Positions 191 through 35,603 are shown, counted from the first letter of the stretch. The stretch: DNA of 64,000 nt from Polyangia bacterium (GCA_046484285.1 JAWOBP010000098.1:23345-87344), one strand, 5' to 3'. Numbers and translations are program-made. Notes: generated from the sequence alone by a model not told the origin.

Positions 191-2146
191 CTAGACAGAA
201 GTTCCCCGCCAAATAGGCCTTCTGAAGACTGACAAGAGGGTGGAATTGCAAGGGAAAGAGGTTTTTTTTGGCCGGCATAAAGTTCCCATGTAATAGGTGC
301 TTTTCACTTGACAGGTACCAAAGCATGTGGTTTTATAGTTCCCATGTACATCGAAAAGGTGCCAAATCGAAACTCTCCTCCCGCAATCTTGCTGCGCCAG
401 GGCTGGAGAGAGGGCAAGAAGGTCAAGAAAAAAACGATCGCGAACCTCTCTCATTGGCCCGAGGAAAAGGTGGAGACCCTGCGTCTGCTGCTCAAAGACA
501 AGCGTCTCGCTCCCGTCGATGAGCTTTTCGAGAAAACGAAAACCGTCCACCACGGCCACGTACAGTCGGTGCTACAAGCCGTCGACAAGCTGGGACTGGA
601 CAAGCTCATCTCCGCCAAGCGCTGCCAGGAGCGCGACATCATCGTCGCCGCGATCACCGCGCGGATCTGCAAGCCGGACAGCAAACTGGCGATGAGCCGA
701 TGGTGGAAGAACACCACTTTGCCGGAGATTCTCGAGGTGGGTGACGCAGACGAAGACGACATCTACGAAGCCATGGACTGGCTTTTGGCACGACAAAAGC
801 GCATCGAGAAGAAACTGGCCAAGAGGCACCTCGAGGATGAAGACTTGGTGCTGTACGACCTGACATCGAGCTATTTCGAGGGAGTGACCTGTCCGCTGGC
901 CACGCTGGGCAAGAGCCGGGACAGGAAGCGAAATACGATGCAGGTCAACTACGGGCTGGTCTCCGACCGCCGTGGCTGTCCTGTGGCGGTGTCGGTCTTC
1001 AAGGGAAACAAGAGTGACTCCAAGACGCTGCTGCCGCAGGCCCGCCGTGTGCACGAGGACTTCGGTATCGAGCGGGTGGTGCTGGTCGGCGACCGCGGGA
1101 TGATCTCCCAAAAGCAGATCGACGTGCTGCGGGACGAAGACGGCTTCGACTGGATCACAGCGCTGAAGAGCGGCGGCATCCGCAAGCTCGTGGAGGGCGG
1201 CGCGCTACAGCTCGACCTCTTCGACGAGCGCAACCTCTTCGAGCTCGAGCACGAGGACTACCCCGGGGAACGGCTGGTGGCTTGCCGCAACCCCGTGCTG
1301 GCGCGGAAAAGGGCCTACAAGCGCGAATCCATGCTCGAAGCCACCGAGCAGGAGCTGGCGAAGATCCGCACCTCGCTGAAAAAGGGCACGCTGAAAAAGA
1401 AAGAGCGCACCAAGGACAGAATCGGCGTGCGGGTGGGCAAGGTAGTCAACAAATACAATATGGCCAAGCACATGGTGCTCCACATCAAAGACAACTCTTT
1501 CGATTTCGAGCTCAATCAGCAGAGCATCGCGGCCGAGGCCGCCCTGGACGGCATCTACATCATCCGCACCAGCCTGCCGGAAGAAAGCATGAAAGCCGAC
1601 GAAGCGGTGCGCAGCTACAAGGACCTCACCTCGGTGGAGCGGGCTTTCAAATCACTGAAAAGCATCGACCTGATGGTGCGGCCGATCCGCCACCGCACCG
1701 AGGATCGCGTGAGAGCGCACATCTTCCTGTCGATGCTGACCTACTACGTGCAGTGGCACATGCTCGAGGCGTGGCGGCCCCTGCTCTTCGCCGACGAGGA
1801 CCAGGAAGCCAAAAAAAGCCGAGACCCGGTGGCTCCGGCGAAGCGGTCGAAGAGAGCGCTGAAAAAAGCACGAACCAAGAAGCTCGATGACGGCACCGAC
1901 GTCGAAAGCTTCCGTACACTGCTCGAGCACATGAGCACGATCACACGCGACACTTGCCGCCAGCGCTGCGACGACGAGTCGTCGCGCACCTTCACAATCG
2001 ACACCACGCCCAACGAGAAGCAAAGCAGCGCCCTCAAATTGCTCGCCCAGATCCCCGTGTACCCATAGCCGCGAATTCCTTTTTCAACCAATCCCCGGGA
2101 AATCATTGGACAAGTCCGCCTTCGGAGCGGGGGAACTTCTGTCTAG
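191..2146 (+). mobile_element. Insertion sequence of the IS1634 family (IS4 superfamily) with 17-bp terminal inverted repeats
   Basis: Left end 191-210 is ctagacagaagttccccgcc. Right end 2127-2146 is gcgggggaacttctgtctag, whose reverse complement matches the left end 17/17 (ctagacagaagttcccc). One 586-aa transposase ORF lies inside. Interior GC is visibly lower than the flanking DNA. No clear target-site duplication seen. Confidence 0.7.
308..2068 (+). CDS. IS1634-family DDE transposase
   Basis: 586-aa ORF with the 'VLYDLTSSYFEG' motif typical of IS1634/IS4 transposases. It is bracketed by the inverted repeats at 191-210 and 2127-2146. Confidence 0.75.
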   Translation: MTGTKACGFIVPMYIEKVPNRNSPPAILLRQGWREGKKVKKKTIANLSHWPEEKVETLRLLLKDKRLAPVDELFEKTKTVHHGHVQSVLQAVDKLGLDKLISAKRCQERDIIVAAITARICKPDSKLAMSRWWKNTTLPEILEVGDADEDDIYEAMDWLLARQKRIEKKLAKRHLEDEDLVLYDLTSSYFEGVTCPLATLGKSRDRKRNTMQVNYGLVSDRRGCPVAVSVFKGNKSDSKTLLPQARRVHEDFGIERVVLVGDRGMISQKQIDVLRDEDGFDWITALKSGGIRKLVEGGALQLDLFDERNLFELEHEDYPGERLVACRNPVLARKRAYKRESMLEATEQELAKIRTSLKKGTLKKKERTKDRIGVRVGKVVNKYNMAKHMVLHIKDNSFDFELNQQSIAAEAALDGIYIIRTSLPEESMKADEAVRSYKDLTSVERAFKSLKSIDLMVRPIRHRTEDRVRAHIFLSMLTYYVQWHMLEAWRPLLFADEDQEAKKSRDPVAPAKRSKRALKKARTKKLDDGTDVESFRTLLEHMSTITRDTCRQRCDDESSRTFTIDTTPNEKQSSALKLLAQIPVYP

Positions 2147-2302
2147 AGGTGAAAAAGGCCAAACAGGGGCTTCGGACTCTGGGCGCTGGGCCAGGTCGCC
2201 GAGAAGCACTGGACCGAGCTGGTCGAGCAGTAGCGGCTCTTTGGACCTGCGCCACGGCCGCTGGTTTTGCACCGACCGCGACGGACACCGCGAGCCCTTA
2301 GA

Positions 2303-2932
2303 CTACTCCTGCTGTTCCTCGTCCTCTTCTTCTTGCAGGGGCGGGTCGTAGCCCAGGACCAGCATTTCTCCGGGCGAGATCACCCTGACGGCGCGTCCCA
2401 GCGGCGCCCAGTACTCGCTCCAGCACCTGTCCGGCGTCCAGAGGTCCGGGGGCCAGTCCTCGGGGTCGTCGTCGGGCAGGTCGAACTCCTCCCCCTCCAG
2501 GCACTCGCTGGTCTGAATGTCCTGCACGTCGGTGTCGTCGTTGTAGACCGTGTTGGTCAGCCGCTCGATCTGGATCACGTCATCGGACTCGAGCCTGACC
2601 CACAGCTCCTGCCAGCTCTCGCCGTAGTCGATCACGATCCGGTCCGAGCGGGTGAACCAGCTCCACTCGCGCTGGCCGACCGAGATACTCTCGATCTCGC
2701 CGGGCGCGACGCCCTCGTCGCCCTCGAGACGGGCGAACCACTCACCGGCCATCAAGCCGATTCCGTCCTCGCCGACGGTGGTGCACTGCTCGTCGAGGCA
2801 GGGTAACCAGCCGCCGTAGTAAGGTCGCGGGTCGAGCCGGTCCGCGCCGGGCTCCTCGCAGCCGGCGGCCAGCGCCGGCGCGATCGCGGCGAGCAGCATG
2901 GCGGCGGACGGGATTGTCTTTCTTCTTCTCAT
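2303..2932 (-). CDS. Hypothetical acidic lipoprotein
   Basis: Signal peptide with lipobox LAAGC. Acidic C-terminal tail (EEEDEEQQE). No recognisable domain. Confidence 0.5.
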   Translation of the reverse strand: MRRRKTIPSAAMLLAAIAPALAAGCEEPGADRLDPRPYYGGWLPCLDEQCTTVGEDGIGLMAGEWFARLEGDEGVAPGEIESISVGQREWSWFTRSDRIVIDYGESWQELWVRLESDDVIQIERLTNTVYNDDTDVQDIQTSECLEGEEFDLPDDDPEDWPPDLWTPDRCWSEYWAPLGRAVRVISPGEMLVLGYDPPLQEEEDEEQQE

Positions 2933-2948
2933 CGCCGGCGACCCCTCG

Positions 2949-5900
2949 TCAGTATGACCATTTCAGCGACAGCGAGAAGGAGCGTCCCTTGCGCCACTTC
3001 TCGGTCGTCATTCCGGCCTGCTCGAATTTGGCCGGCAAGTCGATGATGTTCTTGGCCTCGAGCTTGAGCTGGAAGCCGGCGCCGAGATCCTGGCTGGCCA
3101 CGAAGTCGAGCTGGTGGAAAGGCTGCTCGTAGATGTCGGGTAGCCCGACCGCGCCCACGGTGCGGATCCTCTCGCCGAACACGTTGTAGAGGATTGTCGC
3201 CTTGGTGCCGATCTCGATGTTGTCGTAGCCCAGCTGGGCGTTGAAGATGTACGGCGACTGGCCCTGCAGCGGCCGCTTCTCGTTGGTCTGCGTGCCTTCC
3301 ACGTCCTCGCCCAGCTCGATCCGGGAGTAGACCCAGGTCGCGTTGCCGCCGAAGTAGAGATCCTCGATCGACTCGTGGATGAAGCCGAAGCTCCCCAACA
3401 CGTCGAGCTCGAGCCCGAAATTGCGCGCCGCCTCGGCGTTGGCGAAGGTCTCGTAGAACTGGGCGCCGGGCATGATGATCATCTCGATTGGATCTTCGAA
3501 GTGCTTGAAGAACCCGCCCAGCGAAATGCTCTTTCCGGGGGCGGGGTACCACTCCCAGCGCAGGTCGACGTTGGTGATCAGCGTCCGCTTCAGCTCGGTG
3601 TTGCCCACGATGTCGCGGCCGCCGATCACGTTGGTGAAGCGGGCCGGAGACATCTCGCGGAAGTCGGGCCGCGAGACAGTCTGGCTGACGCCGGCGCGGA
3701 CCAGCATGTCGTCGATGAACTCCCAGGAGAGTGTCGCGGCCGGCAGGTAGTCGGTGGTCTCGATCTTGGAATCGAGCGGCTCGGCGTTCGGGTTGAACAG
3801 CTCGTAGGTGCGGGTGAACTGGTGCGACTTTTCGATCCGCAGCCCGCCCAGCAGGCGAAAGCCCAGGCCGAGCGGAAAATCGGTCATCGCGTAGGCCGCC
3901 CTGATCTGCTGCTCGGCGCTGTAGTTGTCGGTCTCACGCGTGATCTCGGTGAAGAGGTTGTTGACCTGGGTCCCGCTCCAGCGGCCGATCAGCTCGTCGC
4001 TGAACAGCTCCTCGGGCGGGAGGCTGGCCAGCGCCGGCGGGCTGGGGCGGTCCTTGTACTTGAAGCGCCGCGTGTCCGAGCCGCGGTCCTTGAACATCAG
4101 GAGGCCGCCCAGGCGCACCTCGGCGATCTCGTCGCTCCACTGCTCGAACGGCAGCGAGAGGTCGAGACCCAGGTCGTGCACCTCGTCGAGCATGTCGGAG
4201 AAGACCCGCGAGTTGCCGTCCGGGCGGTTGGAGGCTATCCAAAGGTCGGTGTCTCCCTCGCGGTAGTATGTGATCTCCTTGCGATCCGGCTCGTAGCGCG
4301 AGGCGCGCGAGTAGGTGTAGCGCCAGTCGACGCCCAGATCCATCAGCGGCGGGATGATGTGCTCGCCGACCAGCTGCTGGGTCAGCAGCTGCCGCTCCAC
4401 CCACTTGATTCGCGTCACGCGGATGTCGCTCTTGATGTCGCGGTTGTAGCCCCAGTAGAAGCGGGCCGCGTCCTCGGTGACACGGTTGAGCAGCGTGGTC
4501 GATCGGATCAGGTGGTCCTCGCCGATCTCGAGCCCGAGGGTCAGGATGCCCGAGGTCTTGATCACGTTGGTCGTCTCGTCCCACCGGTAGCTGTGGAACA
4601 CCTCGGGCTCGTCGTCGGCTCCGCTGGCCAGGATGTCGAGCTTCTTGCGCTCACGCTCCCAGCCGTTGTCGTAGATCGCGCCGGCCAGAAAGCCGAGCTC
4701 TGCGCCGGGCAGGTCGAGCTTGTGGCCCACCGTCAGCTTGCCGCCGGCGTCGGGCGGGATCTCGTCGCGGTAGGTGCGCCAGTTGTTGCGCAGCGCCTCG
4801 CCGAACCTCTCCAGCTCGTCGGCGGTGTAGCCGTCGGTGAACATGTTGCCTTCGAGCAGCTCCTGTTGCCTGGAGGCTCTGCGCACCGAGGGCGGCAGGT
4901 CGCGCCAGCCGTTGTCCCAGCCGAGCCAGTCGGTGGGGCCGCCGACCGCCATCAGGCCGTCGGTCATCGTGGTGCCCACGGTCCAGCCGCCGCTGGCCTC
5001 CAGATCGAGGTTGAATTCGTCCGGGTAGTCGCGGGTGCGCAGCATCACCACGCCGCCGCCGAACTCGCCGGGCATGTCGGGGGAGAACGTCTTTTGAACC
5101 ACGATGCTGTCCAGCACTCCGGTGGGGAACAGGTCGAGCGGCACCACCCGCCGCTCGGGCTCGGGGCTGGGCAGCATCGCGCCGTTGAGCAGGCTGGAAG
5201 AGTAGCGCTCGCCCAGGCCGCGCACGTAGACGTACTTGCCGCCGATGATCGTCACGCCCGTGACCCGCTTGAGCGCGCCGGCCGCGTCCGAGTCGCCGGA
5301 CTTGGACATCTGCTCGGCGCCGATCACGTCGCTGACCGAGCCCGACTCCCGGCGTTCCTGCAGCAGGGCCGCGCTGCCGCCCTCGATCCGCGGCGCGGTG
5401 ATCACCAGGTCCTCGAGCATCGCGCCGACCGGCACCGCCTCCAGTCGCAGCTCGGTCGGCTCGTCTTCGACGACCTCGATTCCGGACTTGCTGATCGTGC
5501 TGAAGCGGGGGTGCACGGCGGAGAGGTCGTGAGATCCGACCGGGACCTCGACCGAGAAGCGGCCGGACTCGTCGGTGGCCACGTCGCAGCCCACGCCGCG
5601 CACGAAGATCCGCACGTCGGGGATCGGCTCGCCGGTGTCGGAGTGGACCAGAGTCCCGACGATTCGAGACCTGGGCAGGCTCTCGTCGACCTCGACTCGG
5701 GGGCGGGGCGCGCTCGCGGCCTCCACGTCGGTCTCGGCCCGGCCGCCCGCGGGCGCGATGTCGACGAACGCCTCGCTCAGCTTGCCGCGCACGACCGGGA
5801 TCGCGGCGGTTGTGCTGAGCGCGTATCCCTCGCCGCTCAGCTCGAAGGAGTAGCTTCCCGGCGCGATTTCGATCACGACCGCGCCGTCCGCGTCGGTCGG

Positions 5901-6146
5901 GCCCAGGTCGCGGCCGTCGAGCTCGACGCGGATTCCGGCCAGCGCCTCGGAGCTCTCGGCGTCGAAGACCAGCAGCCGCATGCGACCGCACCCGGCCTCG
6001 TCGTCGGCAGGGCGATCCTCGTCGGCGGGCGCCGGCCGGGGCGTCTCGTTCTCGACCGGAGGCTCGGCGTCGCTCTGGCGGGCGAAGGCGGCGAGCGGCA
6101 CGGCCAGCGCCAGGGCTTGCAGCGAGATCGCAGATCCCCGTCTCAT
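2949..6146 (-). CDS. TonB-dependent outer-membrane transporter, Oar-like (two N-terminal carboxypeptidase-regulatory-like domains, plug, 22-strand barrel)
   Basis: Signal peptide MRRGSAISLQALALAVPLAAFA. Two CarboxypepD_reg-like beta-sandwich segments (RLLVFDAESSEALAGIRVEL...; GTLVHSDTGEPIPDVRIFVRG...). Plug region (VYVRGLGERYSSSLLNGAML). Barrel ends ...KWSY (aromatic C-terminus). Size (~1,065 aa) and architecture match the Myxococcus Oar family. Start trimmed to Met at 6146 (signal peptide) rather than the ORF start at 6179. Confidence 0.8.
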   Translation of the reverse strand: MRRGSAISLQALALAVPLAAFARQSDAEPPVENETPRPAPADEDRPADDEAGCGRMRLLVFDAESSEALAGIRVELDGRDLGPTDADGAVVIEIAPGSYSFELSGEGYALSTTAAIPVVRGKLSEAFVDIAPAGGRAETDVEAASAPRPRVEVDESLPRSRIVGTLVHSDTGEPIPDVRIFVRGVGCDVATDESGRFSVEVPVGSHDLSAVHPRFSTISKSGIEVVEDEPTELRLEAVPVGAMLEDLVITAPRIEGGSAALLQERRESGSVSDVIGAEQMSKSGDSDAAGALKRVTGVTIIGGKYVYVRGLGERYSSSLLNGAMLPSPEPERRVVPLDLFPTGVLDSIVVQKTFSPDMPGEFGGGVVMLRTRDYPDEFNLDLEASGGWTVGTTMTDGLMAVGGPTDWLGWDNGWRDLPPSVRRASRQQELLEGNMFTDGYTADELERFGEALRNNWRTYRDEIPPDAGGKLTVGHKLDLPGAELGFLAGAIYDNGWERERKKLDILASGADDEPEVFHSYRWDETTNVIKTSGILTLGLEIGEDHLIRSTTLLNRVTEDAARFYWGYNRDIKSDIRVTRIKWVERQLLTQQLVGEHIIPPLMDLGVDWRYTYSRASRYEPDRKEITYYREGDTDLWIASNRPDGNSRVFSDMLDEVHDLGLDLSLPFEQWSDEIAEVRLGGLLMFKDRGSDTRRFKYKDRPSPPALASLPPEELFSDELIGRWSGTQVNNLFTEITRETDNYSAEQQIRAAYAMTDFPLGLGFRLLGGLRIEKSHQFTRTYELFNPNAEPLDSKIETTDYLPAATLSWEFIDDMLVRAGVSQTVSRPDFREMSPARFTNVIGGRDIVGNTELKRTLITNVDLRWEWYPAPGKSISLGGFFKHFEDPIEMIIMPGAQFYETFANAEAARNFGLELDVLGSFGFIHESIEDLYFGGNATWVYSRIELGEDVEGTQTNEKRPLQGQSPYIFNAQLGYDNIEIGTKATILYNVFGERIRTVGAVGLPDIYEQPFHQLDFVASQDLGAGFQLKLEAKNIIDLPAKFEQAGMTTEKWRKGRSFSLSLKWSY

Positions 6147-6169
6147 CCGCGGTGCGCTCCTCCCGCCCC

Positions 6170-7366
6170 CTACAGGCACTCCCAGCCCATGGCGCGACAG
6201 CGCTCCATCGAGCGGCGCAGCTCCATGGCGTGTTTGAACAGCCGCGGATCCCTGATCCGTTCGAGGTAACTCTCGGCCGCGTCGTGCTTTCCGATCTGGA
6301 ACAGCGAGTAGGCCAGCGCGTAGACCACGGAGTCCTCGTCGAGCAGGCCGAGCCTCTCCAGCCGCGGCTCGAGAGCGGCCGCCTCCTCGAAGCGCTCCAG
6401 CTCGATCAGCAGCCCCAGCCGCTGGCGGATCTTGGCGCGCTGATCGACCACGTCGGCGTTCAGGTAGAGCGCCTGGACGGGCCGCCCGCCCTTCTTGAAC
6501 AGTTCGGCCGCGTCGAGCAGCAGCTCGGGATGCTCGTGAGCCTCGCTGCGGAAGAGGCGGGCCGCGGTCAGGGGGCGCCCGGCCCGCAGGTAGGCGCGGG
6601 CCAGCTGCAGCGCGATCTCCTCGCTGGCCGGAAAGCGCAGGCGCGCGCCCTCCAGGATCAGGATCGCCTGCTCGGCCTGGCCGCCGCGGATCAGAGCCTC
6701 GGAGATAGAGGCGTGGTCATCGGCGCTGGCCTCGGCGCGCTCCAGGTAGGTGCGGCCCTCTTCCATTGCCTGCTGGTAGAGCCCCATCTCGACCAGCAGC
6801 AGCACGCGGTAGCGAGCCAGCTGGGCGTCGTCGGGAAAGCGCTCCAGGCCGTGGCTGAGCGCGTAGAACGCCTGCTCGCGCCGCTCGAGCTTCCAGTGGC
6901 ACTGGGCCCTGAGCCGGTAGCTGCCCGCGAGCGACTCGGCCGCGGCTCCGGCGGCGTCCAGCGCGGCCAGGGTCCCGGCGTAGTCGCCGTTGCCGAAGCG
7001 TGCCTGAGCCAGAAAGACGTGCACCATCGGATCCTGCTGGCCGGCCTCGAGCGAGGCCTCGAGGTGACTCTCGGCGTCGCCGAAGGCGGAGCGCTCGAGG
7101 CTGACCAGCCCGAACAGCATGTGGTAGCGGGCCAGGTCGAGCCCCTCGGCCTCGGTGTCGACCTCGGAGAGCACCGCGGCGGCGCGGTCGAAGTACCCGT
7201 CTGTGAGCATCATCGAGGCCAGCGCGATGTGGTCGACCTCGGCCGGGATCTCCTCCTCCGGGTCTTTCTCCTTCTTGCGCAGCCGCGCTCCGGCGTCCCC
7301 GGGAGCGAGCAGCGCCAGGGCCAGCAGGGCGGCGAGCAGGGCGTCGATGCGGCGTCGGATGCTCAT
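6170..7366 (-). CDS. Periplasmic TPR-repeat protein (TtpD-like component of a TonB2-type system)
   Basis: Signal peptide, then multiple TPR-like helical repeats. Sits 4 bp downstream of tonB in the same operon. Confidence 0.6.
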   Translation of the reverse strand: MSIRRRIDALLAALLALALLAPGDAGARLRKKEKDPEEEIPAEVDHIALASMMLTDGYFDRAAAVLSEVDTEAEGLDLARYHMLFGLVSLERSAFGDAESHLEASLEAGQQDPMVHVFLAQARFGNGDYAGTLAALDAAGAAAESLAGSYRLRAQCHWKLERREQAFYALSHGLERFPDDAQLARYRVLLLVEMGLYQQAMEEGRTYLERAEASADDHASISEALIRGGQAEQAILILEGARLRFPASEEIALQLARAYLRAGRPLTAARLFRSEAHEHPELLLDAAELFKKGGRPVQALYLNADVVDQRAKIRQRLGLLIELERFEEAAALEPRLERLGLLDEDSVVYALAYSLFQIGKHDAAESYLERIRDPRLFKHAMELRRSMERCRAMGWECL

Positions 7367-7370
7367 CGTC

Positions 7371-8033
7371 TCACTCGAGCTCGAACGGGACCTTCTGCGT
7401 GGCCCGGAAGCGGACCGGCTGCCCCTTGTACCTGGCCGGGGAGTAGCGGGTGGAGCCGACCGCCGCGATCGCGGTCTCCTCGAAGACCCCCGGCGGATCG
7501 GACTCGATCACCTTCAGCTTCTCCACCTCCCCGCGCTCGTTGATGACGAAGGAGAGCTTGACGTAGCCCTCGATGTTCTTCTGGCGCGCCCGCGGCGGGT
7601 AGCTGACCGAACCGCGCGAGACTACGCGCGGTTGCTCGTCCACGGTGTTGGCGTTCATCACCATCTCGCGCACGGCTTCGTCGCCCAGCAGCTGGTCGGC
7701 GGCCTCCTCGAGGTTCAGCCCCTCCAGCTGCGGAATGCCGAAGCTGCTGCCCGAGATGGCGGTCGAGAGGTTGGGCAGCGGCGCGCGCTTCGTGTCGCTC
7801 GCGCGGCGCCTGCGCCGGGGCGGCGGTTTCTTCTTCTTCTTGGGCGGCGGCTTGCGCTCGGGCGGCTGGACCACGATCTGCTCGCCGTCGTCATCCTCCT
7901 CTTCGGGCGCGGTCTCGTGGGCGTTCATCACGATCACGGTCCACAGCACCAGCCCGCAGCCGGCGAACATCGAGACGATCGCCATCGCGAGGCGGCGGAG
8001 GCGGGCGCCGGAGTCGAAGGGCGAGTCGCTCAT
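7371..8033 (-). CDS. tonB: Energy transducer TonB
   Basis: N-terminal TM anchor (LAMAIVSMFAGCGLVLWTVIVM), Pro/Lys-rich spacer (PPERKPPPKKKKKPPPRRRRR), and C-terminal TonB domain (YPPRARQKNIEGYVKLSFVINERGEV...). Start ATG 8031-8033 overlaps the exbD stop codon (ATGA). Confidence 0.8.
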   Translation of the reverse strand: MSDSPFDSGARLRRLAMAIVSMFAGCGLVLWTVIVMNAHETAPEEEDDDGEQIVVQPPERKPPPKKKKKPPPRRRRRASDTKRAPLPNLSTAISGSSFGIPQLEGLNLEEAADQLLGDEAVREMVMNANTVDEQPRVVSRGSVSYPPRARQKNIEGYVKLSFVINERGEVEKLKVIESDPPGVFEETAIAAVGSTRYSPARYKGQPVRFRATQKVPFELE

Positions 8034-8434
8034 CCGGCCTCCTTCTCCGTGGCGACCCCCACGTCGGTGGCGCCGCCCAGCCGGCACTGGTCGACGACGT
8101 TGACCAGCTGCTCGGCGGGCACGAGCCTATCGGTGATCACCAGGATCTGTCCCGAGGAGCCCCCCTTGATCAGGTCGCGGACGCGGCTTTGCAGCATCCA
8201 CGGCTTGACCGGTTGGCCGTCGAGGTAGAGCGCGCCCGTGCGCTCGACGTGAATCCGGATCGACTTGGTCGAGGCCCGCTCGGCGCTGGCCGCGCCGGGG
8301 CGTTCGATCTCGAGCTTCATGTCCTTGACGAAGGTGGTCGAGACCATGAAGAAGATCAGCAAGATGAAGACCATGTCGATCAGCGGGGAGATGTCGATTC
8401 CGGTCTGGGTCGTTCGCTTGCGCAGGTACCTCAT
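8030..8434 (-). CDS. exbD: Biopolymer transport protein ExbD/TolR
   Basis: 134 aa with a single N-terminal TM (IDMVFILLIFFMV), typical ExbD. 4-bp ATGA overlap with the upstream exbB. Confidence 0.8.
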   Translation of the reverse strand: MRYLRKRTTQTGIDISPLIDMVFILLIFFMVSTTFVKDMKLEIERPGAASAERASTKSIRIHVERTGALYLDGQPVKPWMLQSRVRDLIKGGSSGQILVITDRLVPAEQLVNVVDQCRLGGATDVGVATEKEAG

Positions 8435-9033
8435 GCTTCGCCTCCCTCGTACGTTGCGCAGACGATGTCCTTGATCTTGGAGATCTCGTTTTCGAAGGCG
8501 TGCTGGCGGTGATCGAGCACGCGTCCGACCAGCAGGCCGGGGATCGCCACGGCCAGCCCCATCTGGGTGGTGAACAGCGCCTGGGAGATGCCGCCGGCGA
8601 TTCCGCCCGACTGGCTGAAGAGGGACATGTCGCCCAGCGAGTCGAACGTTTCGATCATGCCGATCACGGTTCCGAGCAGGCCCAGCAACGGAGCGGCGGC
8701 GACGAAGGCGCGAATCGAGGTGGAGAAGCGTTGCAGCTCCACGTCGTGGACCGACAGCGCGGCGTCCAGGGTGCGGCGCAGGTTGTCACTTTCCCGGGCG
8801 GCGATCTCGACGGCGCGTTTGGCCGCGTGGTCCACGATTCCCGCGGGACGGCGGTCGTAGCCGGCAGAGTAGCGCTCGACCAGGATCCGCACGGAGCGGC
8901 GGTTGCCGCGGCGCAGGGTCAGAAAACGAAAGCCGATCGCGAACCAGATCACGGCCGCCGAGACGAGCAGAGGGATCATCACCCATCCGCCGCTGGCCAT
9001 GTAGCCGCCGAACCGGTCGAGAAAGTCGTTCAT
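8431..9033 (-). CDS. exbB: MotA/TolQ/ExbB proton-channel protein
   Basis: 200 aa with three TM helices and the conserved C-terminal MotA/TolQ/ExbB region (GLLGTVIGMIETFDSLG). 4-bp overlap on both sides. Confidence 0.8.
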   Translation of the reverse strand: MNDFLDRFGGYMASGGWVMIPLLVSAAVIWFAIGFRFLTLRRGNRRSVRILVERYSAGYDRRPAGIVDHAAKRAVEIAARESDNLRRTLDAALSVHDVELQRFSTSIRAFVAAAPLLGLLGTVIGMIETFDSLGDMSLFSQSGGIAGGISQALFTTQMGLAVAIPGLLVGRVLDHRQHAFENEISKIKDIVCATYEGGEA

Positions 9034-10490
9034 GCGGATGCACCGTCCAGCAACGCTCCGCCGCCCTTCGACGTCGCGGACTGGTCTTCGGTCGAGCGTT
9101 TCTCGCGCTGCTTCGAGCCCGCCGAGTCGGGCTTGCCGCCCGTCTGGCGCTCGCGAGCCTTGAAGGCGTCGGCGCGGTTCATCACTTGCAGCGCAACGCG
9201 CTCCATCGACTCGAGAATCGCGCTGGCGCGTCCCGAGAGCAGGGTGCCGAGCAGGAGCGCCGGGATCGCCACCATCAAACCGAGCTTGGTGGTCACCAGC
9301 GCTTCGGAGATGCCGCCGGAGAGCAGCTTGGGATCGCCGGTGCCGAACTCGGTGATCACGTCGAAGGTGGCGATCATTCCGGTCACCGTGCCCAGCAGAC
9401 CGAGCAGAGGAGCCACCGCGGCGATCACCAGGATCGTCGTGCCGAACCGTTCGACGGTCGGCGACTCGTGCAGGATCGCCTCGGAGACCAGGTCCTCGAG
9501 GTGCTGGCGGTCGCGATCGATGTTTCGAATCGTGGCGCGGATCACGCGTGCGCCGGCGCCTTTGCCGGGCCTGAGCACGTCGAGCGCCTCGCGGTTGAGC
9601 CCCTGGTCGACGAGCGGACCGATCTTGCGGATGATCGCGTCGGTGCGCGAGCTGGCGCGCAGCAGGATGAACAGCCGCGCCAGGATCATCAACAGGGCCA
9701 GACCTCCCAGCGCGACGATCACCCAGGCGATCGGTCCGCCGGTCTGGATCTCTTCGACGAAGGACTTCTCTTTCTTCTCCTCGATACCCTTGCTCAAGGA
9801 CTCGTAGAGAAAGATCGCGAGCTGCTGCGGGCGCTCGCCGGAGAAGAGGTCCTTTGCCGTGGCGAAGGCGTCCTCGTGCCAGAGCTTGAGCCGTCCGGCG
9901 CCGGCAGGAGCCAGCGCGCCGCCGGCCGAGTCGGAGAGACCGAACGAGGCGACGTTGCCCACGCGCAGGATTTCGCCCTCGGTCTGGGTTCCGTCCGCCA
10001 GGAAGAAGCTGCCCTGTTCGCGTCTGATCGAGCCGCTGCGCTCGATCACCTCGGCGCCGCGAGTGAACATCCTCTCTACCAGCTCGATCTGCTCTTCGGG
10101 CTCCTCGCCGGGCGCGGGCAGCTCGTAGCCGTGCTTGCGCAGCGTGTCGCCGGCGCGGTTGATCGTCTCCAGCAACAGATCGGCGCGTTCCTCGGCACCG
10201 ACGGTCCGGCGTTCGACCTCGGCCAGATCCCGGTCGATCCGATCGGCCTGGTTGCGCAGCGCGAGCAGCTTGCGCTGCATGGAGTCTATCTCGGAGCGGG
10301 CGGCGGAGACGCGGCGCTCGGTCTCGCGCTCGATCTCGCCGAGCCGGGCCGAGAGCGCCTCCTTTTCGGCCTTGAGGAAGGCGTACTCCTTCTTGTAGGC
10401 CCTGCTCAGCTCCTGGCGGGCGTCGGCGGCGACGTCCAGCGTCGCAGAGCCGATCAGCAGAAAGGCGAGGGCGGACAGTGCGGTCTTCAT
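9030..10490 (-). CDS. Large MotA/TolQ/ExbB-family protein with an N-terminal periplasmic coiled-coil domain (TtpC-like)
   Basis: Signal peptide plus a ~230-aa coiled-coil, then a MotA/TolQ/ExbB channel domain (PLLGLLGTVTGMIATFDVI). The architecture matches TtpC of TonB2-type systems. Confidence 0.7.
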   Translation of the reverse strand: MKTALSALAFLLIGSATLDVAADARQELSRAYKKEYAFLKAEKEALSARLGEIERETERRVSAARSEIDSMQRKLLALRNQADRIDRDLAEVERRTVGAEERADLLLETINRAGDTLRKHGYELPAPGEEPEEQIELVERMFTRGAEVIERSGSIRREQGSFFLADGTQTEGEILRVGNVASFGLSDSAGGALAPAGAGRLKLWHEDAFATAKDLFSGERPQQLAIFLYESLSKGIEEKKEKSFVEEIQTGGPIAWVIVALGGLALLMILARLFILLRASSRTDAIIRKIGPLVDQGLNREALDVLRPGKGAGARVIRATIRNIDRDRQHLEDLVSEAILHESPTVERFGTTILVIAAVAPLLGLLGTVTGMIATFDVITEFGTGDPKLLSGGISEALVTTKLGLMVAIPALLLGTLLSGRASAILESMERVALQVMNRADAFKARERQTGGKPDSAGSKQREKRSTEDQSATSKGGGALLDGASA

Positions 10491-11308
10491 TGCTCGCCTC
10501 CTGGCGGAAGTGCGTTGGGCAACAGGAAGAAACCGGCGCGGATCTGCTTCTTGAACGAGTCGAACAGGTTGGCGATCTGCTTCTTGCCGTCCTCGGAAGA
10601 AACGATCTCGTAGCGCCAGCCGCCGTCGTCCTCGCGGACCGTGTGGCCGAAGCGCCCGTCGCGCGTCTCGAAGTAGAGCATCACCATCCCCACCCGCGCG
10701 ACCTCGGCGAGCATCTCGTCGCCGCCGACGCGGATCACCTGCTTGTAGATCCCGTTCTCGCGGGAGAGCCGCAGCTCGTCCTCGACGCGATCCCAGAGGC
10801 GGGCCACGCCCTCGGTCGACTTGATCAGTCCCTCGTCGATCCGGCGTTTCAGCTCGTCGAGATCCTTGGCCCGTTGCTCCAGCTGGAAGGGCAGGCCGGC
10901 CATCACGGTGCTCTTGATCCTGGCGATCATCTTCAGCACCACCGGCTCGAACAGCTCGTCGCGGCGCTGGTCGCGCTCCACTTCCTCGATCCGGCGGGCC
11001 TTGGCGCCGCGCAGCTGCTCGAGGTTCATTTCGGCGCGCTGAATCTCCATCTCGAGGTCGGCTTTCTGAGCGGCGTAGGAGCGCAGCTGCCCGCGCTGGT
11101 TTTCTTTTTGGGCCTCGATCTCGGCGGCGAGATCCTCCACGTCGGTGCGCAACTCGGCGATCTGCTCGGCCATTTCGACCGTGGACTGACCTCGGGCGGT
11201 CAAAGAGAGGAGTAGAGCCGCGATGCAGGGAACTGCGACCAGCGAGAGGGGATGGATCGCCGCGGAGGGGCGACGGGCTTTGTGTCGTGATTTTCCAGAT
11301 GTTTTCAT
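10487..11308 (-). CDS. DUF3450-family periplasmic coiled-coil protein (TtpB-like)
   Basis: 273 aa with a signal peptide and long coiled-coil. Conserved block FGHTVREDDGGWRYEIVSS...FLLP resembles DUF3450 proteins encoded upstream of exbB in TonB2 clusters. 4-bp overlap with the downstream gene. Confidence 0.6.
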   Translation of the reverse strand: MKTSGKSRHKARRPSAAIHPLSLVAVPCIAALLLSLTARGQSTVEMAEQIAELRTDVEDLAAEIEAQKENQRGQLRSYAAQKADLEMEIQRAEMNLEQLRGAKARRIEEVERDQRRDELFEPVVLKMIARIKSTVMAGLPFQLEQRAKDLDELKRRIDEGLIKSTEGVARLWDRVEDELRLSRENGIYKQVIRVGGDEMLAEVARVGMVMLYFETRDGRFGHTVREDDGGWRYEIVSSEDGKKQIANLFDSFKKQIRAGFFLLPNALPPGGEQ

Positions 11309-11395
11309 GGCGACGTCACCAATTACTCCCGGACAGTCCGGGAGCCGACACCGAGCTTTCGATGCCGGCTCCCGGGTTTCGCGACCAATTTTGAG

Positions 11396-12904
<1,509 letters not shown>

Positions 12905-13003
12905 ATCACTATCTCCTCGATTCGCTTCGCCACATCAGTAACTCCGCTGCGTGTCGAACCCGTGAAGAGCGCGAATCGTTTCATTGACGGCGGGGTAAAG
13001 CGT

Positions 13004-13720
13004 TCACGACGAAGCGCGCTCGTTTCCGCGCACCCGGTAACCGACCCCGTGCACCGTCTCTATCAGTCGACCCGAGCCGCCGAGCTTGGCGCGCAGGCCC
13101 TTGATGTGGGCGTCGACGGTTCGCTCCAGCACCACCGCCTCGCTGCCCCAGACCGCGTCGAGCAGCTCGCCGCGGGTGAAGACGTGTCCCTCTCGGCGGG
13201 TCAACGCGACCAGCAGGCGGAACTCCTGGCGCGTCATCGAGACCGGGCGGCCCGCGACCGTGACCTTGAAGCGCGGCATGTCGACTCGCACCGGCCCCAT
13301 CACGATTTCGCCCTCTTCGCTTTGCGGCTCGAGGCGGCGCAGGATCGCGCGCACCCTCAAGACCAGCTCGCGCATGCTGAACGGCTTGGAAACGTAGTCG
13401 GTGGCGCCCAGCTCGAAGCCGACCACGCGGTCGGTCTCGGAATCCCGCTCGGTGAAGAACACGATCGGTATCTTGAAGGTGCGCGAGTCGGACTTGAGGC
13501 GGCGGCAGACCTCGGTGCCGGACAGGTCGCCCAGCTCGACCTCCAGCAGAATCAGGTCGGGTTGATCGACGGCCGCGATCTCGAGAGCGGAGCCGCTGTC
13601 GTGAGCCGCCTGCACACCGATGCCCTCGCGCTCCAGCGCTCGCCGAACCGCCTTGCTGAGCTCGCGATCCGGGTCGACCAGCAGCACGGTGTTCTCGTGG
13701 GACGAGTGTTCCTCCATCAC
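13004..13720 (-). CDS. OmpR/PhoB-family response regulator, atypical receiver (Glu at phospho-acceptor position)
   Basis: Receiver plus winged-helix domain (RQEFRLLVALTRREGHVFTRGELLDAVWG...VDAHIKGLR). Aligned to PhoB, DLILLDWMLP becomes DLILLEVELG (Asp->Glu) and the acidic pair is VDPD. Thr (FFTERD) and Lys (YVSKPF) are conserved. Confidence 0.75.
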   Translation of the reverse strand: MMEEHSSHENTVLLVDPDRELSKAVRRALEREGIGVQAAHDSGSALEIAAVDQPDLILLEVELGDLSGTEVCRRLKSDSRTFKIPIVFFTERDSETDRVVGFELGATDYVSKPFSMRELVLRVRAILRRLEPQSEEGEIVMGPVRVDMPRFKVTVAGRPVSMTRQEFRLLVALTRREGHVFTRGELLDAVWGSEAVVLERTVDAHIKGLRAKLGGSGRLIETVHGVGYRVRGNERASS

Positions 13721-14024
13721 GATTCCGAATGCTAGGGACGAGTTGCGTCAGCGCGGGCACCGAAAGGTGACAATTCGGTGAGAAGCTCGTTAATCGTGTA
13801 CCAGCGCGGCCACGTCGACGGCTTTCGGGATCGATTGGCGGATCTGGGATGCGATGCGCCCACTGGCAAGATTGTCAAACAGACCAGAAAGGAGAAGATC
13901 GCCGAAGCGTGAAAGCTCCTGCACGGATTGTGCTGGGCTGGTTATGACCGGACAGCCGGCCGAGCCCGGGCGCTCGAACCCGCGCGGAGATGTGTGAAAC
14001 AGGGGTGCGCGGGCGCCGCTCTCG

Positions 14025-15554
<1,530 letters not shown>

Positions 15555-15746
15555 CGAGAGAACTCCTTTTTGCAGTGTGTGAAAAACGCGCAACAACAAT
15601 CTCATTGATTGCCCGGACTTTGTATTCTGAAGTGGTTGTGAGTCAAGGGGCTCGGAGAAATTGCAGAAAAACGAGGGGATTGAAGGGTTGCCTTCCGGGC
15701 GCGGTTGCATACAATCCGCATCTCGGCGCCCGGGTGCGCCTGGTAT

Positions 15747-31592: not shown

Positions 31593-35603
<4,011 letters not shown>

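Follow-up and report, generated by a model that had tools for sequence, protein, structure and literature searches.

Which way does cargo move through a TonB-dependent transporter (TBDT) that is encoded together with its own Ton system? The question is raised by a gene cluster in a 64,000-nucleotide stretch of DNA from a Polyangia bacterium (the window). Seven co-directional genes, called on the (-) strand, fill positions 2949-11308, and the preliminary description read them as a possible export system of the Oar type. Because relatives in many phyla adjoin phosphate-starvation genes, phosphorus scavenging rather than protein export is most likely. We consider it likely that the cluster is a putative outer-membrane unit for TonB-dependent uptake during phosphate shortage; it is probably a phosphorus importer.

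A Pfam search assigned the seven genes to the families named earlier: DUF3450/TtpB, TtpC, ExbB, ExbD, TonB, TPR/TtpD, and a 1,065-aa TBDT. The borders first drawn are too narrow. The functional unit runs on the (-) strand from a response regulator gene beginning at 13720 to the end of a small lipoprotein gene at 2303, and is probably one regulated unit. The junctions, too, depart from the initial account, in which all six upstream genes overlapped by 4 bp and were expressed stoichiometrically. ATGA overlaps occur at only four of six junctions (DUF3450/TtpC, TtpC/ExbB, ExbB/ExbD, and ExbD/TonB); the TonB/TPR junction is a 4-nt gap (TGAgacgATG), and the TPR/TBDT junction is a 23-nt gap, the TBDT gene having its own Shine-Dalgarno sequence (gggaggag). 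Two relatives, L087 and L088, keep the first three overlaps and have a gap at ExbD/TonB. Nor does translational coupling mean that the products are made in equal amounts.

The proposal of a dedicated TonB2-type energiser for the TBDT is supported: the six Ton genes represent the same families, in the same order, as the Vibrio TonB2 and TonB3 sets. First is a TtpB-like periplasmic coiled-coil protein with a signal peptide (DUF3450; 10487..11308, (-); PF11932, E 4.5e-29), followed by a 486-aa TtpC-like protein (9030..10490, (-)); ExbB (8431..9033, (-); PF01618, E 3.3e-25); ExbD (8030..8434, (-); PF02472, E 1.2e-25); a 220-aa TonB (7371..8033, (-); PF03544, E 2.6e-20), whose start ATG at 8033 lies within an ATGA; and last a TtpD-like TPR protein with a signal peptide (6170..7366, (-); ANAPC3, 1.8e-10; TPR_19, 2.1e-8). 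The TtpC-like protein has a signal peptide, a long coiled-coil periplasmic N-terminal extension, and a C-terminal MotA/TolQ/ExbB channel domain (PF01618 at aa 314-430); it matches a 455-aa homologue in a Pseudoalteromonas cluster at E 8e-35. TonB consists of an N-terminal membrane anchor, a Pro/Lys-rich spacer, and a TonB_C domain, and also matches TIGR01352 (53 bits; cut-off, 27).

The six-gene TonB2 system of Vibrio cannot work without TtpB and TtpD (PMC6957404), the need for the accessory Ttp proteins having been established genetically. Vibrio TonB2 is under Fur control and energises numerous siderophore receptors whose genes lie elsewhere. TonB3, in contrast, is not iron-related and includes a receptor gene in its operon (PMC6957404), as does the window, although that gene stands at the start of the TonB3 operon and at the end of this one. 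No Vibrio is among the matches listed for the window's TBDT family, and Pseudoalteromonas and Alteromonas have the six Ton genes together with a TBDT-lipoprotein pair of the window's kind. The comparison set comprised 82 loci related to the window's TBDT, from more than 12 phyla; in it, the six-gene operon is an optional add-on to the TBDT family, present in about 30 loci.

The TBDT (2949..6146, (-)) begins with a signal peptide and ends in WSY at the close of a 22-strand-type barrel. Pfam finds two CarboxypepD_reg stretches, as first described, along with Plug, TonB_dep_Rec_b-barrel, and OMP_b-brl_3. The N-terminal extension (NTE) domains are NTE1 (aa 54-142; 5721-5987, (-)) and NTE2 (aa 159-237; 5436-5672, (-)). 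A TonB box was sought and is present just ahead of the plug: EDLVITAPR (aa 245-253; 5388-5414, (-)), in the disordered linker between NTE2 and the plug. The AlphaFold model (pLDDT 85) matches generic TBDTs in the PDB. Relatives number 5,356 at E<=1e-5; the best 120 of these share 41-91% full-length identity, and those named are Myxococcota or Deltaproteobacteria MAGs, plus Persicimonas caeni. Family members carry two, one, or no CarboxypepD_reg domains, and NTE1 is almost confined to members encoded with the six-gene operon. The best curated match is TIGR01782 TonB-Xanth-Caul, below cut-off at 237 bits versus 310. Comparison with curated models rules out a SusC or a siderophore receptor.

Beyond the Ton genes lies the acidic beta-helix lipoprotein noticed earlier. 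Its lipobox, isoelectric point, and AlphaFold model bear out that character, but the gene spans 11396..12859 (-), not 11396-12904; the ATG at 12859 follows a Shine-Dalgarno aaggag. The protein (Pfam Beta_helix_4, PF28492) has the lipobox LAGC, then DDDDD and a D/S-rich linker; its pI is 4.05, with 19% D+E. The model is a right-handed beta-helix (mean pLDDT 89.7) with weak generic beta-helix matches in the PDB (E>1e-3, TM about 0.25). A lipoprotein with 100% identity is on record for a Polyangia MAG, and PF28492 is present in every listed match.

A homologous lipoprotein adjoins the TBDT in 68 of the 82 loci, making it the most conserved neighbour. Adjacent pairs occur in Myxococcota, Planctomycetota, Poribacteria, Acidobacteriota, Gemmatimonadota, Gamma- and Betaproteobacteria, Campylobacterota, Spirochaetota, and Bdellovibrionota, as well as in Bacteroidota and on replicons of Pseudoalteromonas and Alteromonas; homologues in most phyla keep the lipoprotein character. 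The lipoprotein is functionally tied to the TBDT. The earlier suggestion that it is a substrate therefore survives as to the tie; the phosphate-uptake context and the published homologous pairs favour a partner rather than cargo. The TBDT may nonetheless help to put the lipoprotein on the cell surface.

Those published pairs are ElpS (CC0170)/CC0171 of Caulobacter crescentus, Fjoh_0546 ("FII")/Fjoh_0545 of Flavobacterium johnsoniae, and BT4056/BT4055 of Bacteroides thetaiotaomicron. Each, like the window pair, places a beta-helix lipoprotein of about 50 kDa, pectin-lyase-like, next to a non-SusC TBDT; such pairs span very many genera and are linked to the Pho regulon or to Pi depletion, and the published lipoproteins are surface-exposed or released. 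ElpS is surface-exposed and induced by Pi starvation; iron depletion does not induce elpS (PMC2996285). The Flavobacterium genes lie in the phoBR operon, and Pi depletion raises them by log2 8-10; the authors report uncharacterised low-Pi-inducible Flavobacterium loci to be tightly repressed under Fe and N limitation (PMC8115612). For BT4055/BT4056, found as a pair in 621 genera, a lid is predicted on the outer face; the published prediction for the homologous pair contains few contacts of high confidence and leaves a side channel open (bioRxiv 10.1101/2023.03.17.533168).

The window lipoprotein is probably of this type, a proposed surface partner or "lid" of its TBDT. The assignment draws on descriptions that agree, on the domain architecture that Pfam gives for the partner TBDT (Fjoh_0545 likewise has Plug, CarbopepD_reg_2, and OMP_b-brl_3), on taxonomic range, and on a homologue in Parabacteroides (E 7e-51). 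The arrangement would also recall SusC/SusD and TbpA/TbpB, in which a substrate-binding surface lipoprotein caps or feeds a TBDT, although here a beta-helix stands in place of the TPR-like SusD and the TbpB lobes, and the TBDT has no match to the SusC model. There are differences from the ElpS-type pairs: the window pair is split by, and predicted to be co-transcribed with, the six-gene TtpB-TtpD Ton operon; its TBDT has a second N-terminal domain; its lipoprotein has a long D/S-rich acidic linker; and an extra small lipoprotein follows the TBDT. Against a role in phosphate uptake, Caulobacter cc0171 is reported to be constitutive (PMC2996285), and published work gives no uptake phenotype for any pair member.

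Genomic context also links the TBDT family to phosphate. At least one Pho gene (PhoB, PhoR, or PstSCAB) lies within 10 kb, often within 200 bp, in 40 of the 82 loci. Unbiased clustering of neighbours recovered recurrent PhoB-like regulators (34 loci), PhoR-like kinases (17), PstB (13), PstC/A (9), and PstS (8); one scanned representative each of PhoB, PhoR, PstB, and PstS exceeded its NCBIfam cut-off. Among the closest long relatives, L087 (TBDT 70% identical) has the order regulator, lipoprotein, six Ton genes, TBDT, small lipoprotein, and then Porin_O_P, PstS, PstC, PstA, PstB, and PhoU; the arrangement in L088 (61%) is similar. In L086 (91%), a Sulfatase/Phosphodiest enzyme is encoded downstream. 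In Alteromonas macleodii a PstS-like gene is followed by one for a triple beta-helix protein, then by the TBDT gene and all six Ton genes. However, about half of the related loci have no Pho gene within 10 kb, and the window contains no pst, phoU, or porin genes; where the closest relatives have them, it has an IS1634 transposase.

The window does contain a PhoB-like response regulator of the OmpR family (13004..13720, (-)), directly upstream of the cluster. Its two best NCBIfam matches, scoring 205.5 and 203.3 bits, are to PhoB models whose cut-offs, 270 and 296, they do not reach; this shortfall, and the absence of an adjacent kinase, count against the phosphate reading. In L087 an orthologue (E 4e-83) immediately precedes the same cluster, and the PhoB equivalog is matched at E<=1e-70 by 23 of the 36 regulators that adjoin related clusters. 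A Pho-box-like direct repeat, TTCTCAC-CGAA-TTGTCAC (13767..13784, (-)), lies some 47 nt ahead of the regulator gene and has three mismatches to CTGTCAC-N4-CTGTCAC. It is a candidate autoregulatory site, suggestive by position only, because the window has no more Pho-box-like matches than chance would give (5 against an expected 6.3); the L087 regulator gene, too, is preceded by a 7-4-7 TTCAC repeat of similar form. A second motif, CTTCACGGGTTCGACACG (12950..12967, (-)), has two CAC-ending half-sites 11 bp apart and is kept as CTTCATCGGTTCGACACG before the L087 lipoprotein gene, although the rest of the spacer has diverged. The OprO/P-type porin genes of L087 and L088 are also preceded by TCTTCAC(G/A)G(G/T)T, beside classical Pho boxes. 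The motif would be a candidate binding site for the regulator and part of the cluster promoter region.

Could the substrate instead be a carbon source, with the beta-helix protein binding or cleaving glycans at the surface and the TBDT importing oligosaccharides, in a CUT or PUL-like locus? The TBDT's best curated match, TIGR01782, points that way, as its subfamily presumably includes Caulobacter and Xanthomonas transporters that import maltodextrin and sucrose. The fold is weakly like pectate/alginate lyases, tailspikes, and epimerases, and Lidbury et al. modelled the Flavobacterium homologues on polygalacturonase (PMC8115612). Yet the structural matches are weak, as given above; recurrent neighbour families include no glycoside hydrolase, sugar transporter, or sugar regulator, but Pho genes instead; and the Flavobacterium homologues are responsive to Pi but not to a shortage of N or Fe (PMC8115612). 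The TBDT family also occurs in chemolithoautotrophs and methanotrophs (Nitrosomonas, Methylobacter), where a universal nutrient fits better than a carbon polymer. A carbohydrate locus is thus unlikely; were the substrate a phosphorylated or polyanionic polymer, it would merge with the phosphate explanation.

Export, in which the TBDT and its private Ton system would move the adjacent lipoprotein (to the surface) or another protein outward, is very unlikely. Oar (MXAN_1450) sets the precedent: also from Myxococcota and encoded next to its own Ton genes, it has a CarboxypepD_reg extension, TonB box, and plug, and such a protein can be required for secretion, as for PopC (PMC6434023). ElpS reaches the Caulobacter surface without the type II secretion system (PMC2996285); Price et al. 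call the wide non-Bacteroidota spread of ElpS-type surface lipoproteins unexplained (bioRxiv 10.1101/2023.03.17.533168); and strict TBDT-lipoprotein adjacency would also be expected of a cargo-exporter pair. But the extension, taken at first as the hallmark of Oar, is carried by about 28% of all TBDTs, mostly Bacteroidota importers (PMC6434023), and varies from zero to two copies within this very family. Oar has a single NTE and a TonB box at residues 118-122 (PMC6434023), not two NTEs and a box at 245-253; its Ton cluster is of four genes, without TtpB, TtpC, or TtpD; and the window cluster has no protease cargo gene. The model comparison placed the TBDT nearest TIGR01782 and does not support membership of the Oar family, nor is orthology to Oar supported: M. 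xanthus has its own, closer counterpart (L077), which keeps the lipoprotein neighbour and whose domain coordinates do not fit Oar. Gene order there fits the MXAN_0276-0272 cluster; if the counterpart is MXAN_0272, its deletion left PopC secretion unaffected, and it failed to make PopC soluble in E. coli. The lipoprotein, unlike PopC, has a Sec/lipoprotein signal peptide; AlphaFold-Multimer puts the homologous lipoprotein on the outer face, lid-like (bioRxiv 10.1101/2023.03.17.533168); and the porin, PstSCAB, and PhoU genes of L087 and L088 indicate nutrient uptake. Context and the homologous pairs, published as a Pi-induced lipoprotein with a TBDT or as a TBDT with a "lid", point away from an export role.

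Uptake of iron, siderophores, or other metals is very unlikely: the six-gene TonB2 of vibrios energises siderophore uptake under Fur control (PMC6957404), JGI auto-annotation calls homologues "receptor protein involved in Fe transport", and one related locus (L002) adjoins a DtxR-type regulator, but the siderophore receptor model scores 14.8 bits and siderophore/haem models 15-17 bits against cut-offs above 220, genes for siderophore biosynthesis, periplasmic binding proteins, and reductases are not recurrent neighbours, the Flavobacterium homologues are reported to be repressed under Fe limitation (PMC8115612), elpS is not induced by iron depletion (PMC2996285), and a search of the whole window allowing up to 3 mismatches found no Fur box, as the preliminary description expected for a non-iron role.

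Phosphate uptake would proceed as follows. The PhoB-like regulator would switch the cluster on, with the acidic lipoprotein as its first and probably most highly expressed product. Conserved adjacency shows the partnership with the TBDT; the published homologues supply the surface location and lid geometry. Substrate would enter through the TBDT when the cluster's own TonB pulls the TonB box, driven by a proton-powered ExbB/ExbD motor needing TtpB, TtpC (a long ExbB paralogue), and TtpD; NTE1, judging from co-occurrence, may dock the TBDT to the Ttp accessory proteins. Phosphate released in the periplasm would then be taken up by PstSCAB; in the closest long relatives, the cluster is followed by the genes for a porin of the OprO/P type, PstSCAB, and PhoU.

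Two smaller features complete the unit. Between the lipoprotein gene and the Ton operon is a 17-bp stem-loop without a T-tract (11338..11375, (-); -47.7 kcal/mol, z -5.2 against shuffles), with no Rfam match. Its sequence is kept in L087, and another locus (L003) has a different hairpin in the same place; through attenuation or mRNA stabilisation, it could set a high ratio of lipoprotein to Ton proteins. Directly after the TBDT gene is a 209-aa small acidic lipoprotein (2303..2932, (-); lipobox LAAGC), with no Pfam or NCBIfam match. Absent from the more distant of the related loci compared, it is kept in close relatives: the 196-aa product of the gene after the L087 TBDT matches it at E 4.6e-56, and L086 and L088 have genes matching it in size and position.

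The transporter cluster is a minus-strand unit that runs from a regulator gene (13004-13720) to a small lipoprotein gene (2303-2932), in a window of about 65-70% G+C. Seven co-directional genes lie within 11308-2949, each with a clear Pfam family match: DUF3450, or TtpB (273 aa; E 4.5e-29); a TtpC-like protein (486 aa), with a signal peptide, a long coiled coil, and a C-terminal third that is a MotA/TolQ/ExbB channel domain; ExbB (200 aa); ExbD (134 aa); TonB (220 aa, from the ATG at 8033); a TtpD-like TPR protein (398 aa) with a signal peptide; and a TonB-dependent transporter (TBDT) of 1,065 aa, whose ATG at 6146 follows the Shine-Dalgarno sequence gggaggag. Directly upstream of this operon is the gene for a beta-helix lipoprotein (11396-12859). 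The gene content is as claimed in the preliminary description, which also held all six Ton genes to be ATGA-coupled. Direct reading places ATGA overlaps at four junctions only (DUF3450/TtpC, TtpC/ExbB, ExbB/ExbD, and ExbD/TonB), whereas the TPR gene is preceded by a 4-nt gap and the TBDT gene by a 23-nt gap on the same strand.

The TBDT contains two CarboxypepD_reg-type domains, Plug, TonB_dep_Rec_b-barrel, and OMP_b-brl_3 (Pfam). The reading of its N-terminal domains as CarboxypepD_reg holds under HMM analysis: PF13620 matches in two stretches (E 3.3e-17), PF13715 matches also, and the AlphaFold model (pLDDT 85) has two beta-sandwich domains, at residues 54-142 and 159-237, followed by plug and barrel. 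A TonB box that is conserved in the family, EDLVITAPR, lies ahead of the plug in a disordered linker (residues 241-256). The model fits onto ordinary 22-strand transporters with 12-14% sequence identity (Foldseek against the PDB), a generic result that is uninformative on substrate; a PDB sequence search found no match. Among curated models, TIGR01782 (TonB-Xanth-Caul) leads by a wide margin (237.2 bits; E 3.7e-70), though under its cut-off of 310. Membership of a siderophore-receptor or SusC-type family, raised earlier for comparison, finds no support: the siderophore model TIGR01783 scores 14.8 bits (cut-off 223.5), the haem model TIGR01785 scores 17 bits (cut-off 316.9), and the SusC/RagA model gives no match at E ≤ 0.01. 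Homologues are numerous (5,356 proteins at E ≤ 1e-5), the best 120 having 41-91% identity across the full length.

The lipoprotein carries the lipobox LAGC, then DDDDD and a D/S-rich linker, and has a pI of 4.05. Its AlphaFold model (pLDDT 89.7) is a right-handed parallel beta-helix with all-beta helical rungs. The best Foldseek matches in the PDB are weak and generic (tailspikes, PL6 lyases, epimerases, and pectate lyase), and so are silent on substrate. Invariant Asp, Glu, and His residues form a ladder along the beta-helix, and H250, D254, D255, E258, D276, D277, D280, E306, D308, and N309 are among the invariant positions. In most phyla these homologues are lipoproteins, typically with acidic residues after the Cys; their precomputed annotations include Beta_helix_4, a new Pfam family. 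A Polyangia (Myxococcota) metagenome-assembled genome has a 100% identical copy on record.

Scanning a single genome for each species gave 585 relatives, and the best 80, together with two contigs obtained by exact look-up, make up 82 loci, in which homologues of the window proteins were sought. The constant neighbour is the beta-helix protein: in 68 of the 82 a homologue is encoded immediately next to the TBDT, whether before or after it, and some of the remaining loci are contigs that end beside or inside the TBDT gene. This conserved adjacency establishes the TBDT and the lipoprotein as partners. The pair occurs in Myxococcota (including Myxococcus and Corallococcus), Planctomycetota, Poribacteria, Acidobacteriota, Gemmatimonadota, Latescibacteria, Lysobacterales, Pseudomonadales, Nitrosomonas, Methylobacter, Campylobacterales, Spirochaetaceae, and Bdellovibrionales, and on replicons of Parabacteroides, Bacteroides, Phocaeicola, Hymenobacter, Pseudoalteromonas, Alteromonas, Indioceanicola, and Sphingomonas. 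(The TBDT-adjacent homologue of Parabacteroides distasonis matches at E 7e-51; beta-helix matches also adjoin TBDTs in Bacteroides finegoldii and Phocaeicola.) Two examples are enlarged: the Pseudoalteromonas protein, beside its TBDT, is a tandem duplication of 931 aa with two domains (L083 6032-8827), and that of Alteromonas macleodii, likewise TBDT-adjacent, has 1,356 aa and is matched by the query at three places (L089 1164-5234).

The six-gene operon is a less regular companion, present with the pair in only about 30 of the 82 loci. Myxococcus and some others have a simpler Ton gene set beside the pair, and most loci are without nearby Ton genes. The first N-terminal domain (NTE1; residues 54-142, window 5721-5987) is found in 26 of 31 transporters with the six-gene operon against 2 of 50 others, although these sequences are not independent; Pseudoalteromonas is an exception to the co-occurrence. 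The correlation points to a docking site, and NTE1 may be a docking domain for accessory proteins. Alternatively, it may simply reflect a shared clade, and mark a mobile eight-gene module.

In seventeen loci, from Acidobacteriota, Gemmatimonadota, Poribacteria, and others, the beta-helix gene is followed by one for a small protein, about 200 aa long (L004, L024, L030, L031, L034, L044, L049, L050, L053, L056-L060, L062, L068, and L073). It is unrelated to the 209-aa lipoprotein of the window and had no NCBIfam match in the single example scanned; it may be a third module component in those phyla.

All ORFs of the 82 loci were clustered without prior assumption. With the cluster's own genes and the spurious antisense ORFs overlapping them set aside, the most recurrent neighbours were an OmpR-type regulator (34 loci), a histidine kinase (17), an ABC ATPase (13), long permeases (9), and a periplasmic binding protein (8). 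One representative each of regulator, kinase, ATPase, and binding protein scored above the NCBIfam cut-off for PhoB, PhoR, PstB, and PstS, respectively. The PhoB equivalog was matched at E ≤ 1e-70 by 23 of 36 regulators, and the sole other family was a single MtrA match. PhoB, PhoR, or PstSCAB lies within 10 kb in 40 of the 82 loci, often within 200 bp; rough reasoning puts the chance level for a random gene at about 1%. Thus, the TBDT family is linked to Pho and Pst genes.

The closest long relatives, L086-L088, are decisive for the phosphate reading of the window. In L087 (TBDT 70% identical) the order is: regulator, beta-helix lipoprotein, DUF3450, TtpC, ExbB, ExbD, TonB, TPR, TBDT, and a 196-aa protein, followed a few genes later by Porin_O_P, PstS, PstC, PstA, PstB, and PhoU. 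The layout of L088 (TBDT 61% identical) is similar, including Porin_O_P, PstSCAB, and PhoU. L086 (TBDT 91% identical) has a Sulfatase/Phosphodiest-family enzyme after the small protein. Alteromonas macleodii shows the order PstS-like gene, 2OG oxygenase, triple beta-helix protein, TBDT, and six Ton genes.

For the window itself, the Pho link consists of its regulator together with orthology to clusters of the L087/L088 type. The regulator is orthologous to that of L087 (E 4e-83), and its two best NCBIfam matches are PhoB models, both under cut-off. The 209-aa small lipoprotein is likewise orthologous to the 196-aa protein of L087 (E 4.6e-56); it was considered as a universal part of the module and rejected, being conserved in close relatives only. 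Just past this end of the cluster, on the side where L087 and L088 have the OprO/P-type porin, pstSCAB, and phoU, lies an IS1634-family transposase gene on the plus strand (308-2068; NCBIfam 314.6 bits, cut-off 100). Its insertion may have broken or displaced the porin/pst part of the locus; no pst genes were found elsewhere in the window.

Regulatory sites offer leads only. The motif CTTCACGGGTTCGACACG (12950-12967) upstream of the lipoprotein gene is conserved in L087, where the spacer has otherwise diverged; in the relatives, related TCTTCAC elements, together with textbook Pho boxes (CTGTCAC-CCGC-CTGTCAC), lie ahead of the porin and pstS genes. A repeat resembling a Pho box (13767-13784) precedes the regulator gene by 47 nt; matches to the Pho-box consensus in the window number 5 against 6.3 expected, with no enrichment. 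Their number is uninformative, and what suggestion there is comes from where this one site lies and from the footprint in common with L087. A scan for sigma-70 promoters and terminators found nothing above chance, and an Rfam scan of 2000-14200 gave no credible match.

Pairs of this kind have been met before. The Caulobacter lipoprotein ElpS (CC0170), roughly 50 kDa in size and bearing an LAGC lipobox, is produced only when cells are starved of phosphate, and iron limitation does not bring it about; it is surface-exposed independently of the type II secretion system, and its gene adjoins the TonB-dependent receptor CC0171 (PMC2996285). Le Blastier et al. noted homologous lipoprotein-receptor pairs in Xanthomonas, Sphingomonas, Hyphomonas, Shewanella, and Bacteroides (PMC2996285). 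The phoBR operon of Flavobacterium johnsoniae contains the gene of a TBDT, Fjoh_0545, whose domains are Plug, CarbopepD_reg_2, and OMP_b-brl_3, and next to it that of a lipoprotein with a pectin-lyase fold, Fjoh_0546 (Lidbury et al., PMC8115612). When Pi is depleted, both are induced (log2 change 8-10 in that paper's table), the uncharacterised low-Pi-inducible loci are reported to be tightly repressed under N and Fe limitation, and Fjoh_0546-type lipoproteins are 31-36% identical to ElpS (PMC8115612). Price, Deutschbauer, and Arkin described BT4055 as a TBDT and BT4056 as its putative "lid", of a non-SusD type (bioRxiv 10.1101/2023.03.17.533168). [quoted passage not shown]

The window pair very probably belongs with these. 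The likeness is one of fold, lipidation, partner Pfam architecture, taxonomic spread, and Pho linkage rather than of alignment: the lipoprotein has the LAGC lipobox and a pectin-lyase-like right-handed beta-helix; it adjoins a non-SusC TBDT (as in 68 of 82 loci) with the same Pfam set as Fjoh_0545; and the family of that TBDT is linked to Pho genes in 40 of 82 loci. No type II secretion genes, such as stand beside the Caulobacter pair, were found among the neighbouring large genes examined.

These comparisons suggest a most likely model for the cluster. The regulator would respond to phosphate, and the TBDT would act in import of a substrate that contains phosphorus: either orthophosphate, where this is scarce, or a polyanion (polyphosphate, nucleic acid, phytate, or teichoic acid, for example). 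A polyanion would suit the lipoprotein because of the ladder of invariant Asp, Glu, and His along its beta-helix. By analogy with the published homologues, the pair would be induced by phosphate limitation, and the lipoprotein would be exposed on the surface in a lid-like position; TtpB, TtpC, and TtpD would each be needed.

Carbon-glycan uptake would fit the affinity of the TBDT for TIGR01782 and the beta-helix fold of its partner. It is nevertheless unlikely, both from the genes that neighbour the pair and because Nitrosomonas and Methylobacter have members of the family.

The preliminary description proposed a different role, in which an Oar-like TBDT serves protein export with the adjacent lipoprotein as candidate substrate. 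(Oar, MXAN_1450, is the Myxococcus xanthus TBDT needed for PopC secretion.) It is right in seeing an outer-membrane module that is dedicated, energised, and bound up with the adjacent lipoprotein. The export part, however, leaned on the CarboxypepD_reg extension as the hallmark of Oar. The "Oar architecture" of CarboxypepD_reg, plug, and barrel occurs in 28% of all TBDTs and is dominant in Bacteroidota (PMC6434023). Because so many TBDTs share it, the extension does not discriminate, and it gives no indication of an Oar-like exporter; within the family of the window TBDT the number of such domains is 2, 1, or 0.

Nor does Oar appear to be the closest M. xanthus counterpart. The M. xanthus relative recovered is the TBDT of locus L077 (DK1622 protein ABF89166.1; 34% identity over residues 162-1064), which retains the beta-helix lipoprotein neighbour. 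Its N-terminal extension (residues 179-255) and plug (residues 285-378) misfit the published coordinates of Oar, where residues 24-248 take in both and the TonB box is at 118-122 (PMC6434023), a comparison made by coordinates and not by alignment. The L077 order, TonB-ExbB-ExbD-ExbD-TBDT, makes it probable, on gene order alone, that this is the MXAN_0272-0276 cluster; its TonB, with 262 aa, does not quite agree with the 269 aa that the published description of that cluster implies, and the DK1622 accessions found by look-up carry no locus tags. No Oar-specific Pfam family, such as the barrel family PF25183, came up for the window TBDT at E ≤ 10 or in the precomputed Pfam lists of 120 listed homologues, presence of such a model in the searched library being unconfirmed. 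In the related loci examined, no TBDT other than the family member was found, and tblastn of the plasmid set matched only members of the family or unannotated TBDTs.

The window TBDT does not appear to be Oar-type in any specific sense, and the Oar-like, export-directed reading is wrong or at least unsupported. Export could still take a more particular form, in which the TBDT, driven by the six Ton proteins dedicated to it, takes its ElpS-type partner lipoprotein (or another protein) outward to the surface, before or instead of importing a nutrient. A TBDT acting outward on the lipoprotein would explain surface display in phyla that have no Bacteroidota export route. Even so, this is very improbable: the lipoprotein has its own signal peptide, the neighbours speak of uptake, the N-terminal extension is variable in the family, and the probable M. 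xanthus orthologue gave a negative result, its deletion having left PopC secretion unaffected.

The energiser of the phosphorus-import model resembles the Ton systems of Vibrio. TonB2 requires TtpB (DUF3450) and TtpD (TPR), and TonB3 combines the six genes of TonB2 with an outer-membrane receptor gene; no tested iron compound is transported by TonB3 (PMC6957404, PMC10734418). The window Ton genes are exactly this six-gene set, in order (as defined in PMC6957404), and as in TonB3 the receptor gene is inside the operon, although it stands last in the window and first in Vibrio TonB3 and in Alteromonas. Unlike TonB2, the window shows no Fur box: a scan of all 64 kb found no site within three mismatches of the 19-bp consensus, a weak negative with an enterobacterial consensus. 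Iron uptake, which a TonB2-type gene set might suggest, is very unlikely in view of this result and the low scores of the siderophore and haem models. In the plasmid set, replicons of Vibrio, Photobacterium, and Salinivibrio have TtpC and are without a beta-helix homologue; presumably, theirs are TonB2 systems. A homologue search with the Alteromonas TBDT returned Alteromonadales-like proteins only, and no Vibrio, among the matches listed.

The lipoprotein-TBDT pair is among the most widespread transporter-partner pairs outside the SusCD family, and phosphate depletion strongly induces it in both organisms tested. The pair itself was already known, if poorly understood; what is new is that an ElpS-type pair is linked to a TonB3-type energiser and wired to Pho genes, and that NTE1 correlates with the six-gene operon. 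Many lineages keep the pair together with an entire TtpB-TtpD Ton system, which provides a candidate role, phosphorus scavenging, for TonB3-type systems. Since the unit is wired to PhoB-like regulators, the OprO/P-type porin, and PstSCAB, it is a candidate for the step at the outer membrane by which oligotrophic and marine bacteria acquire phosphorus with high affinity.

Between the lipoprotein gene and the first Ton gene is a minus-strand stem-loop of 17 bp (11338-11375; dG -47.7 kcal/mol, z -5.2), without a T-tract and without an Rfam match. Its sequence is conserved in L087 (about 4790-4840), and a different hairpin occupies the same place in the related locus L003 (about 4215-4245). This structure could set a high ratio of lipoprotein to Ton gene expression, whether by attenuation or by stabilising the mRNA.

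Several other genes of the window deserve mention. Upstream of the regulator, a 561-aa protein (14025-15710, minus strand) contains long Ser-Asp repeats that match staphylococcal Sdr/Clf models and a C-terminal choice-of-anchor Q domain; it weakly resembles the protein after phoU in L087 (E 4e-11), and shares with the beta-helix lipoprotein the possession of an Asp/Ser-rich acidic stretch. A fused glutamate formimidoyltransferase and methenyl-THF cyclohydrolase (FtcD + FchA-like; 567 aa; 17199-18902, minus strand) is unrelated to the cluster. The plus-strand gene at 20168-25477 encodes a TPR protein of 1,769 aa. Two very large minus-strand products, of 1,336 aa (31593-35603) and 2,476 aa (35734-43164), have no Pfam match, and a 784-aa protein (28634-30988, minus strand) contains a domain usually seen in tailspike or fibre-like proteins, Peptidase_S74 (endosialidase chaperone).
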